Positions 14,549 through 16,103 of a stretch of 64,000 nt of DNA are shown piece after piece. Origin of the DNA: a virus; IMG/VR virus record IMGVR_UViG_3300042509_001467, positions 1 to 64,000 of that record; one strand, 5' to 3'. How positions within the stretch are numbered: position 1 is the first letter of the stretch; each line of letters begins with the position of its first letter. The notes beneath the pieces are model-generated. The model was not told the DNA's origin and did no database searches. It saw only the letters and a list, made by a program, of their open reading frames with translations. Made by a program: the position numbers and the translations under genes.

Positions 14549-16036
14549 TCAAATGTCCACCTGTGGGGGTGGGTTGGTTAAATCTGCTATGGCTTGGAGG
14601 ATGGGGTAGACCTGTTGAGGGCAGACGGCGTTACCTAGGGCTTTCAGTCGATTTCTAGCCACTCGTCTGGAAAGCCCATCATCCTGGAGACAAACAACGG
14701 GTTTAACGTCCCACGTTCTCCAGTCTCCGCCTTGTACTGGTGCATATCCGTTGGCAACTGCCCCTCTCGTCCCTGACCTTTCCAATCCCTTGCTTTTGGT
14801 GTTCCGAGCATCATCGTCCTGGCTAGTCCCACCGTCCCGCTGGCTCCCGATGGGGTTGTCTTGCGGATGTTCCCCGACGCTTTCACGCTGTACTGATCGT
14901 TCTCCCCGAAGATCGCTCCCGTTGTCCCGTCGCTGGCTGTCGGGGTTGGTAGCAAGCACTCCCGAGCAATCACCGTCTCTAGGTTTGGAAAGTGGTTGGG
15001 GTTCGGATTCAATCCTGCTGACATTGCCGAGTTCGCCCTCGGCGTAGGCAACGATGAAGACTCGGTTCCGTCTATGCACCGCTCCAACATCGGAAGCTCC
15101 GTACATAGTCCATCCCACGCGATACCCGATTTGCTCCAGATCATTGAGTATCCTTCCAAAGAATCGTCCAGATTCAGAGCTAAACAGTCCTGGAACGTTT
15201 TCTCCCAAGAAGAATCGGGGAGTCGCCTCGCTGAGTATTCGGACGACCTCACTCCAGAGATCACGCTCGTCACCAGACGCCTTGCGTGATCCCGCAAGGC
15301 TGTGGGGCTGGCACGGCTCACGGGAAGCCCGCGCTGACCAAATCTATCTTGGTCGGGCTGGCTTCCGCTTGTGGCACCTCCTGAACCTTGCTTAAATAAG
15401 TCTCTCTGTGAATCTCGTGATGGCATTTTTGGCATACCCATATTACATCTAGCGGTTTGTCATAGTCGTAGTGGTGACCTTGTATTGCGGTTCGTCCGTC
15501 CTTAAACGGCTTTGGCTTTTGTTGGCATCGTTGGCAAGTGTCAGGTCTAACAAGGTCGCCCTTAATTAAAGCCTTCTCCATCTTGTTCTGCGCGGCGTCC
15601 TTTGCTTCTGAGCCACCTCGATAGAAAACGTTATCTTCTCCGTACCTTATCCGTGGCTCAAACTGAGTACCGCGTAACTTCAATATCTGGTGCATTGCTT
15701 GCCTGGTGATTCCGTACTCTTTGGCTACCGCGTCAATGGACTTTAGTTCTGCATATCTAGCCGGGGCGTTGTCATACTTTGGATTCATTTTCATATCTTC
15801 GTATTCCTCCCATCTATTATGCCATATATTGGCAAGGTGAAGCACCGTGCCATCAAATGTTGTAACGTCATCATGTATCGGTACGCCTGGAAAGTTCTTT
15901 GCTAAGACGCGCTGACAGTATTCATCGCGCTCTACAAGCTGGATCGTTGTAAATCCCGCCCAGTAAGCTGCTAAATCAATACCTCCAACTAAATGCCTGA
16001 GAATAAACTTAGGTGCGTTAAAGTTTTCTCAGGCAT
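14549..16036 (-). CDS. C5 DNA cytosine methyltransferase alpha chain with in-frame HNH insertion, interrupted by 5-nt (15987-15991) and 7-nt (15314-15320) stop-containing inserts
   Basis: Joining 16036-15992, 15986-15321 and 15313-14549 gives 491 aa with FSGI|GG (motif I), GFP|CQ (IV), ENV (VI), HRRNRVF (VIII) and LGNAV (X); GGAGGT RBS at 16045-16050; intact paralog at 53254..53982. Confidence 0.85.
14644..15321 (-). CDS. C5 methyltransferase beta chain, encoded in an alternative frame inside alpha (M.EcoHK31I-type)
   Basis: LPTPTASD repeats and LNPLFVSRMMGFPDEW (motif IX-like); frame open to 15441; a GTG at 15321 overlaps the TGA at 15318-15320. Confidence 0.75.
   Translation of the reverse strand: MSRASPTALRDHARRLVTSVISGVRSSEYSARRLPDSSWEKTFQDCLALNLDDSLEGYSMIWSKSGIAWDGLCTELPMLERCIDGTESSSLPTPRANSAMSAGLNPNPNHFPNLETVIARECLLPTPTASDGTTGAIFGENDQYSVKASGNIRKTTPSGASGTVGLARTMMLGTPKARDWKGQGREGQLPTDMHQYKAETGERGTLNPLFVSRMMGFPDEWLEID
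15318..15794 (-). mobile_element. HTH + HNH-type (His-Me finger) homing endonuclease inserted in the methyltransferase
   Basis: HTH SIDAVAKEYGITRQAMHQIL; CQRC...GHHYDYDKPLDVIWVCQKCHHEIH; own GGAGG RBS (15806-15810) before ATG 15794; absent from the paralog. Confidence 0.8.
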
Positions 16037-16103
16037 TGGCAATCACCTCCTTTTGAATTTGAAGCCCGTTAAATCCTCGTAAATCTGCGGTGCTGAATTG
16101 CAT
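16029..16103 (-). CDS. 24-aa leader ORF (MQFSTADLRGFNGLQIQKEVIANA) overlapping the methyltransferase start
   Basis: First 12 residues identical to 53979..54194; its stop lies in the hairpin covering the MTase ATG. Confidence 0.5.
   Translation of the reverse strand: MQFSTADLRGFNGLQIQKEVIANA

Follow-up and report, generated by a model that had tools for sequence, protein, structure and literature searches.

A C5 cytosine DNA methyltransferase gene (PF00145) on the minus strand of a lake-water phage contig, running from about 16036 to 14549, is broken within its motif I by five nucleotides that begin with a stop codon and directly follow a hairpin. The contig is the 80.7-kb IMG/VR record IMGVR_UViG_3300042509_001467, and its first 64,000 nt are the stretch analyzed here, called the window. 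The insert and its hairpin are probably the remnant of a homing-endonuclease cassette which settled at motif I and which the ribosome hops by a short programmed translational bypass. A second break, in motif IV of the same gene, is associated with an HNH endonuclease fused into the host protein. By a small measure we lean to the broader view that two HNH cassette families have settled in FxGxGG and GFPCQ, the two motifs of such genes that are conserved best, each with a hairpin-driven hop of 4-15 nt over a stop codon, and that together they make up the first natural and widespread class of short bypasses, with hundreds of loci.

On the minus strand the motif I region reads AUG CCU GAG AAA ACU UUA ACG CAC CUA AGU UUA UUC UCA GGC AUU UAG UU GGA GGU AUU GAU, with AUG at 16036-16034, AUU at 15994-15992, UAG at 15991-15989, UU at 15988-15987 and GGA at 15986-15984. 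A mini open reading frame (ORF) of 15 codons is closed by the UAG, and the rest of motif I (GGIDL...) follows 5 nt on in a different frame. Alignment with the uninterrupted paralog of the same phage (53982..53254) and with the closest relative, locus L032, places a gap of exactly 5 nt at this point, which confirms the UAG UU insert between AUU and GGA GGU that an earlier note on this DNA had described. Bases 16037-16026 are 100% complementary to 16003-15992, the arms being separated by 22 nt, and this hairpin (hairpin 1) is the sole spaced perfect inverted repeat of at least 12 nt in the 64-kb window. In the minimum free energy fold (-19 kcal/mol; z = -7.1 versus shuffles) the perfect 12-bp stem was recovered as the earlier note had given it, with the AUG masked in the 5' arm and the 3' arm finishing on the last base of AUU. 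The note had also extended the stem by AAACUU/AAGUUU; the extension exists, beyond a 2-nt bulge, but is 5 bp (AACUU/AAGUU) rather than 6. The elements of the motif I break are as follows.

16045..16050, minus strand: Shine-Dalgarno (SD) sequence GGAGGU, serving the new start; all related cassettes have an equivalent SD in front of theirs
15989..16036, minus strand: mini-ORF MPEKTLTHLSLFSGI with its UAG, the cassette-borne new N-terminus holding the first half of motif I
16026..16037, minus strand: 5' arm of hairpin 1 (AAUGCCUGAGAA), with the AUG inside, from the fold and the inverted-repeat scan
16006..16025, minus strand: inner stem AACUU/AAGUU of hairpin 1 with a 10-nt loop, from the fold
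15992..16003, minus strand: 3' arm of hairpin 1 (UUCUCAGGCAUU), its last three bases being the take-off codon AUU 15994-15992, from the fold and from covariation across loci
15987..15991, minus strand: 5-nt insert UAGUU, which would put a stop codon in the A site and adds 2 nt; landing is proposed to be on GUU 15989-15987, with GGA next
15846..15986, minus strand: alpha chain, GGIDL (second half of motif I) through DVTTFDG (motif III), read in a frame shifted by the 5 nt

The GGIDL frame contains no ATG, GTG or TTG from the stop at 16031 to 15846, and there is likewise no in-frame start before PCQ; internal initiation of the downstream parts was ruled out on these grounds. A nearby AUG, in ..CCAUGCCAG.., was rejected as a start because it is out of frame. 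The earlier note had allowed for a sequencing or assembly error. The insert region is identical in independent contigs from four other lake-water metagenome runs of different studies (2020-2024), namely X2 record 12, X3 record 18, X7 record 25 and X11 record 4, and the 7-nt insert of motif IV is likewise identical in X3 record 15 and X2 record 11. These identical independent assemblies exclude an assembly artefact and, as the same insert also occurs in other contigs, an error of either kind is scarcely credible.

Comparison with 53254..53982 also bore out that the N-terminal extension is missing from the intact paralog. The stretch CACCTAAGTTTATT(C/T)TC(A/C)GGCATT is common to the window and the cassette of locus L059, and is not shared by the paralog or L032. 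Upstream of the broken gene a small ORF at 16029-16103 of the minus strand (MQFSTADLRGFNGLQIQKEVIANA) is a shortened version of the 71-residue ORF that precedes the paralog (53979-54194), and its stop codon (UGA 16031-16029) lies within the 5' arm of hairpin 1. The cassette seems to have replaced the 3' two-thirds of this small ORF together with the original methyltransferase start.

The same layout, with the break between FxGI and GG, is found in at least 20 other phage loci from unrelated metagenomes. These have a new start codon with its SD, a repeat of the N-terminal codons, an insert of 4-6 nt and a hairpin in which base changes are compensatory. The insert is TGACC in L113/L215, L096, L192/L320, L194/L253, L211, L243, L248, L249, L256, L262 and L302, and TAGTT in the window, L329 and L330. 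L044 and L208 have an in-frame stop followed by GGN (the TAAGGT class), and 4-nt inserts that lack a stop are present in L059 (CAAC) and L047/L196 (TGTT). The first codon of the insert is a stop throughout the TGACC, TAGTT and TAAGGT classes. A 16-letter pattern, GGCATYTGACCGGNGG, gave 118 matches, most of which we estimate (the figure was not computed) to be chance; only those in an FxGI / GGxxL coding context were kept, 16 matches representing 14 distinct sequences. An exact pattern scan around the insert of the window gave no match. In another locus, L193 (IMGVR_UViG_3300035698_003044), the break comes one step later, ..FSGIGGF UGA and then ..DFDLGLE, and the predicted hairpin is weaker (-11 kcal/mol) with the AUG outside it.

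Each of these cassettes has a strong SD and a new start that usually encodes M-P-(E/D)-K. The start sequence A-AUG-CCN-GAG-AA is the reverse complement of motif I, UU-CUC-NGG-CAU-U, and hence the hairpin spans from the base before the AUG to the last take-off base. In the eight loci that take off from Ile (the window, L113, L096, L192, L194, L059, L047 and L196), a hairpin begins near the start codon and extends to the take-off codon. The wobble base of the Ser/Ala codon takes part in a UA pair in two of them, a GC pair in two, a CG pair in one and an AU pair in three, which makes 8/8 Watson-Crick with four pair types. When six loci were compared with shuffles, five gave z scores of -5.0 to -7.1, and L192 gave z = -2.4. 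The pair table was anchored on the start and take-off codons, as a MAFFT/RNAalifold alignment of the motif I site (site 1) misaligned some 5' arms. Insert-free homologs, in which the earlier note had seen a possible source of counterexamples, do not have the hairpin: when the starts of 63 different methyltransferase genes without an insert were folded over the same span, it was absent (z +0.29 on average and never below -3). This control set includes L195 and L197, in which the associated endonuclease gene, HNH-2, is present and insert and hairpin are both missing.

HNH-2 is a free-standing gene with helix-turn-helix (HTH) and HNH parts (phrog_8446, 3.1e-18), and lies directly upstream in about half of the site-1 loci. 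Upstream of it stands the orphaned original methyltransferase N-terminus, for example MKFISLFAGIGGF in L044 and MRHGSLFSGVGG in L047. The N-terminal copy in the cassette encodes the same protein by way of synonymous changes, which include a switch of Ser codon family (AGU versus UCA). The insert has been kept, with HNH-2 lacking from the available upstream sequence, in the window and in L113/L215, L243, L248, L249, L262, L302, L330 and L241 (L256, with only 324 nt of upstream sequence, was not judged). Downstream ORFs in such loci are long, 238-421 residues, except in L113/L215, L262 (160 residues) and L330 (72 residues); L113/L215 is broken at motif IV, as is the window. A full cassette would consist of HNH-2, which the window phage would have lost, the new SD and start, a diverged copy of the first 10-15 codons and the 4-6 nt insert, usually stop-containing, placed exactly between the two halves of motif I.

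The broken gene has motifs I, IV (PCQ), VI (ENV), VIII and X in order, spread over frames. PF00145 matches 14549-15331 at 1e-28 and, weakly, 15318-15986 (the paralog matches at 1.4e-36), and the N-terminal part of the alpha chain (15846..15986) matches residues 13-69 of M.HhaI. Read 5' to 3', the second half of motif I through motif III is followed by an in-frame HTH-HNH insertion, IDLVSAGFP, UGA with the 7-nt insert, CQPHSLAG.. to motif VIII, and motif X. The features from the endonuclease onward, together with the comparator, are these.

15351..15845, minus strand: HNH-1, the in-frame HTH-HNH endonuclease insertion, with its own ribosome binding site GGGAGG at 15811-15806 and an ATG at 15794
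15321..15368, minus strand: hairpin 2, with outer stem GCGGAAGCC / GGCUUCC(C)G and inner stem GACCAA / UUGGUC, ending at the take-off codon CCG 15323-15321
15314..15320, minus strand: 7-nt insert UGAGCCG in motif IV, between GFP and CQ, which is also the stop of the HNH-containing ORF
14549..15313, minus strand: C-terminal part of the alpha chain, which runs from CQ of motif IV through motifs VI and VIII and a linker free of stops to motif X
14644..15441, minus strand: beta ORF in the +1 frame, with a target-recognition region (PTPxxxD repeats) and motif IX, overlapping alpha
53254..53982, minus strand: the uninterrupted paralog used as comparator, without insert, N-terminal extension or hairpin

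HNH-1 comprises about 165 codons and matches the PHROGs families phrog_2340 (endonuclease, 1.3e-19) and phrog_8446 (HNH endonuclease, 4.6e-9), and the alignment has the invariant C..C, GR..IQ.HH and W.C..CH columns of the HNH catalytic motif. A Pfam search gave no significant HNH match, PF01844 included. Homologs of the HNH-containing ORF of the window are 211-260 residues long, contain motifs I-III, the HTH-HNH part and ..xIDxxxGGFP, and end exactly after GFP. An alignment-based scan for relatives of this ORF found at least 544 in the metagenome collection and 320 in IMG/VR viral contigs; a single-protein pattern scan for HNH in viral contigs gave no match. Statistics for the motif IV site (site 2) are based on 78 unique loci, and those for hairpin pairing on 69.

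HNH-1 accompanies every site-2 break analyzed. The stop directly follows the Pro codon in 68/78 loci, the remainder having CAA or CGA and then UGA. Insert lengths are 6 nt (39 loci), 7 nt (18), 8 nt (5), 9 nt (13) and 10, 12 and 15 nt (one each), which leaves 54 loci in frame, 19 at +1 and 5 at +2, and some inserts contain double stops (UAAUAA, UGAUAA). The triplet before UGY is CCN in 44, UCN in 16, CUN in 7, UUN in 2, ACN in 6 and GCN in 3, and the landing triplet is therefore cognate or G.U near-cognate (CCN, UCN, CUN, UUN) in 69/78. The hairpin is two-tiered: GGN-UUC-CC pairs with an upstream GG-GAA-NCC, and the last 9 nt before the insert are paired in 67/69 loci. Duplex energy was -12.6 versus -7.5 and -8.6 kcal/mol in control windows (p ~1e-12). 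The Gly-wobble pair is GC in 33, CG in 28, UA in 5 and AU in 2 loci. The excess of G.U over A.C pairs in the stem core (34 versus 2) indicates that the structure is formed in the sense-strand RNA and not in DNA. The survey of homologs for covariation between hairpin and insert that the earlier note had proposed was positive at both sites, in many diverged loci and with compensatory changes.

Two HNH-bearing loci differ, in that the frame continues past GGFP without a stop. In L127 (IMGVR_UViG_3300045767_000001) the PCQ..AG stretch is out of frame and the frame is restored before ENV, and in L082 (Ga0070749_10082423) the insert is CCG AUC GGC CCG with one base seemingly missing in CQ; these may be decayed or differently recoded members. 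Other explanations were also considered and rejected. An intein was rejected because the alignment shows no intein termini, and a group I intron because there is no ribozyme, only 6-15 nt would be left over and one continuous frame of the ORF leads from motif III into motif IV; an Rfam search of 13800-16600 found no family at E values up to 1. The use of all three stop codons, in differing frames, disposed of both an alternative genetic code and selenocysteine insertion.

Between break-bearing loci the ratio of nonsynonymous to synonymous differences (pN/pS) downstream of the break is 0.13-0.49, and the off-frames give 0.43-11.9, for the most part near 1 or higher. Divergence is no lower in the HNH parts (pS 0.66-0.95), which argues that the insertions are old and not serial recent invasions of intact genes. 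For the window and L032, both with a 7-nt insert, pN/pS is 0.21 in the N-terminal part, 0.36 in HNH and 0.31 in the C-terminal part. To judge from these comparisons, the parts flanking the breaks are under purifying selection. A randomly decaying pseudogene was rejected on the basis of the same two codon boundaries in many lineages, the covarying hairpins and the pN/pS values of 0.13-0.49. Recurrence, covariation and purifying selection likewise support the view of the earlier note that the two breaks are a repeated hairpin-codon-stop architecture, with translation across the gap as the step that the sequence comparisons suggest rather than display.

Indifference to frame, tolerance of double stops and exact restoration of the motif argue for a short translational hop. 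A ribosome that started at AUG 16036 would reach AUU with UAG in its A site. The peptidyl-tRNA(Ile) would then un-pair, the mRNA would slide by 5 nt, and re-pairing with the near-cognate GUU (as G.U, U-A and U.G) would allow decoding from GGA and give FSGIGG. In the TGACC class the landing triplet would be ACC, and L044 has a perfectly matched GGU/GGU. At take-off the 3' arm of the hairpin would be inside the ribosome, with the inner stem-loop and the free 5' arm just outside the exit, and the outer stem, as it zips up, would draw the mRNA a few nucleotides forward. The zipping model matches a proposal for T4 gene 60, in which forward bypassing is driven by pairing of the mRNA as it leaves the ribosome (bioRxiv 10.1101/2024.12.09.627546). 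The second, independent cassette, in-frame HNH-1 with its 7-nt insert in motif IV, would act likewise, by re-pairing from CCN to CCN, UCN or CUN, to give two hops per alpha chain. The junction-spanning peptides predicted by the bypass are ..SLFSGIGGIDLAAYW.. or ..SAGFPCQPHSLAG...

At the DNA level, the insert would break the motif I sequence that the N-terminal copy otherwise recreates and so may protect the element from its own nuclease. More generally, the inserts interrupt FSGIGG and GFPCQ, which are the expected endonuclease targets, and would thereby render the element immune. The link of both cassettes to homing endonucleases, which the earlier note did not make, would give the insert this second role of target-site immunity.

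Several observations weigh against a bypass. The landing matches at motif I are partial (GUU by wobble; ACC at 2/3 positions), nine of the 78 site-2 landing triplets are ACN or GCN, and where the window has the matched CCG/CCG of site 2, its closest relative, L032, has CCU..UCA. By take-off at site 1 only 15 residues have been made, which precludes a peptide signal like that of gene 60 and brings a risk of peptidyl-tRNA drop-off, and each alpha chain would require two hops. Read-through is possible at the majority of site-2 loci, those with an in-frame insert, and translational coupling could be all that the hairpin does. L047, L059, L082 and L127 have the look of decayed family members; L059 and L047/L196, with their 4-nt inserts lacking a stop, may be so. 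Lastly, runs X7 and X11 contain an HNH-less allele that is about 10 times as abundant as the HNH-bearing one with which it coexists (depth 170 versus 18.5 and 43 versus 4). In this allele the HNH region is skipped (joint 15316/15850, with about 58 nt between), and the C-terminal part of alpha is about 93% identical. Given such an abundant allele and a second paralog, the phage would tolerate loss of function of the broken gene.

In a rival reading the inserts are immunity scars and nothing more. The inserts would merely destroy the endonuclease target, the alpha chain would not be made and its flanks would be intact through recent acquisition; the methyltransferase would be dead, or only the beta and HNH parts would matter. 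Element logic alone accounts for an insert within a duplicated target, and the uninterrupted paralog, the commoner HNH-less allele in the same lakes and the decayed-looking relatives all fit. We nonetheless consider this unlikely, since purifying selection acts downstream of the breaks between lineages in which HNH is near synonymous saturation. Moreover, an SD, a start codon and a protein-conserving N-terminal copy are superfluous for a mere scar, DNA-level immunity leaves a conserved and covarying sense-strand RNA hairpin unexplained, and cassettes that lack the endonuclease retain long open downstream frames. A different form of recoding is improbable. A -1 or +2 frameshift at AUU UAG would give FSGI-LV-GG or FSGI-V-GG, and read-through or a +1 shift would serve at motif IV, the extra residues being tolerated. 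UGA followed by C is a weak stop, +5 equals -1 in frame and the in-frame majority of site-2 inserts suits read-through, but no single shift fits site-1 inserts of 4, 5 and 6 nt and three site-2 frames, or passes the double stops. There is also no slippery sequence, re-pairing of the AUU decoder with CAU or UUA would be poor, and insert-free family members show no insertions inside FxGxGG or GFPCQ.

Hairpin 1 may well have a part in initiation. By hiding the AUG it would couple initiation to translation of the upstream ORF, and such a role at site 1 in addition to the hop is likely. The AUG is in the stem in all folded cassettes except L193 and the TTG-start loci L047/L196, and the upstream ORF ends in the 5' arm in the window and L044 and, as read by eye, in L096 and L192. 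That the hairpin is a coupling or repression device only, with the AUG hidden until the upstream ORF is translated and no role in ribosome movement, is highly improbable: the constant end point of the 3' arm, the last sense codon ahead of the insert, would be left unexplained, as would the like geometry, in 67/69 loci, of the motif IV hairpin, where there is no start codon. Coupling is in any case compatible with bypass as a second function. There is a very remote chance that the insert is absent from the mature mRNA, either because RNA polymerase skips it at the hairpin or through some processing reaction. The geometry alone, a hairpin immediately followed by 4-15 nt, speaks for this, but we know of no mechanism of that kind, the locus has neither an Rfam family nor intron or intein features, and all DNA contigs contain the insert.

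To our knowledge, programmed bypassing has essentially one bacterial example, T4 gene 60 with its homologs, and is otherwise known in a single mitochondrial lineage of yeasts. The yeast inserts, called byps, are 27-55 nt long and GC-rich. In T4 a single mobile cassette combines the HNH endonuclease gene mobA with the gene 60 bypass, and its insert gives protection against the nuclease (bioRxiv 10.1101/2022.08.31.505936). The methyltransferase cassettes resemble it in tying an HNH homing endonuclease to a non-coding insert within a highly conserved codon stretch, in bringing a copy of host coding sequence with a new N-terminal extension, and in having a stop (or slow codon) right after take-off with cognate or near-cognate landing. 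In both, an upstream stem-loop adjoins the take-off site, and the endonuclease is often lost while the insert stays, as in the site-1 loci that lack HNH-2. The differences are as plain. The gap is 4-15 nt here and 50 nt in gene 60; there is no take-off stem-loop or SD within the gap, which is too short to hold a stem-loop; and the nascent peptide at site 1 (15 residues) is too short to act. Here the 5' hairpin is conserved and covaries, in contrast to the 5' stem-loop of gene 60, which relatives of that gene have not conserved. A C5 methyltransferase gene, not a topoisomerase gene, is the host, and two types of cassette occupy two motifs of one gene, with HNH-1 fused in frame into the host protein.

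Three other systems invite comparison. Short stop-hops such as CUU UAG CUA occur at a low level in synthetic E. coli test constructs, and according to a review of them no natural hopping over an in-frame stop is known (PMC5009743). The likeness is a hop of a few nucleotides over a stop to a matching codon just behind it (CCN-stop-CCN in 44/78 site-2 loci), but the sites described here are natural, conserved and equipped with a dedicated hairpin. In the mitochondria of Magnusiomyces capitatus, as cited in bioRxiv 10.1101/2022.08.31.505936, ribosomes skip many short non-coding inserts in conserved genes and tolerate imperfect matches of take-off and landing. Unlike the site-1 and site-2 inserts, these belong to a eukaryotic organelle and are not linked to HNH genes. 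In mycobacteriophage Corndog an HNH gene is inserted at the start of the tape-measure gene, which has no canonical start, and the authors considered ribosome bypassing (PMC4351075). That gene is a different one, and no short insert or hairpin is described for it. A full-text literature search found no description of HNH/methyltransferase bypass elements.

If the bypass proposal is true, a large and diverse natural family (320 relatives in IMG/VR and at least 544 in metagenomes, from lakes, sediments, digesters and guts) would be added to the known cases, and its signal, made up of a hairpin, one codon, a stop and a few further nucleotides, would be much simpler. The idea that re-pairing of mRNA at the ribosome exit is the force for forward sliding would gain direct support from nature, and the "endonuclease plus bypass" arrangement, by which selfish elements invade essential motifs and the host gene survives, would be generalized. 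Gene callers split or discard such methyltransferases, and the methylation capacity of phages is consequently under-annotated.

The remaining frame changes in the gene, from motif VIII to the target-recognition region and from motif IX to motif X, were rejected as lesions, since they are the normal alpha/beta overlap in relatives. The alpha frame contains motifs I-VIII, a stop-free linker and motif X; in the +1 frame lie motif IX and the PTPxxxD repeats; numerous stops interrupt the third. This layout was seen in the window, the paralog, L006, L010, L013, L022, L023 and L032. The two-frame design is also present in L012, L016, L017 and L021, with a hydrophilic linker of 60 to about 400 codons that looks as if selected only for the absence of stops. 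M.EcoHK31I is an alpha/beta C5 methyltransferase whose motif IX is encoded in another frame inside the alpha gene (PMC2836561). Judged by frame layout as described, it is alike in having alpha motifs I-VIII and X in one frame and motif IX in an overlapping one. It differs in that the predicted beta chain of the window family also carries the PTPxxxD target-recognition repeats, and across the beta region the alpha frame is a hydrophilic linker without stops, which can reach about 400 codons. These findings agree with companion notes on the alpha, beta and HNH products and on the 7-nt insert.

Directly downstream of the methyltransferase lies a Mom-family gene (PF25680, 6e-17) at 13927-14547 of the minus strand. 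In a related phage, G002 (IMGVR_UViG_3300042300_000932), the segment 24737-25443 corresponds to 13900-14606 of the window, and its Mom-family gene is 100% identical to this neighbor of the broken copy. There it is paired with a methyltransferase of the paralog type (99% identical), and comparison of these sequences indicates shuffling of modules between the two methyltransferase neighborhoods.

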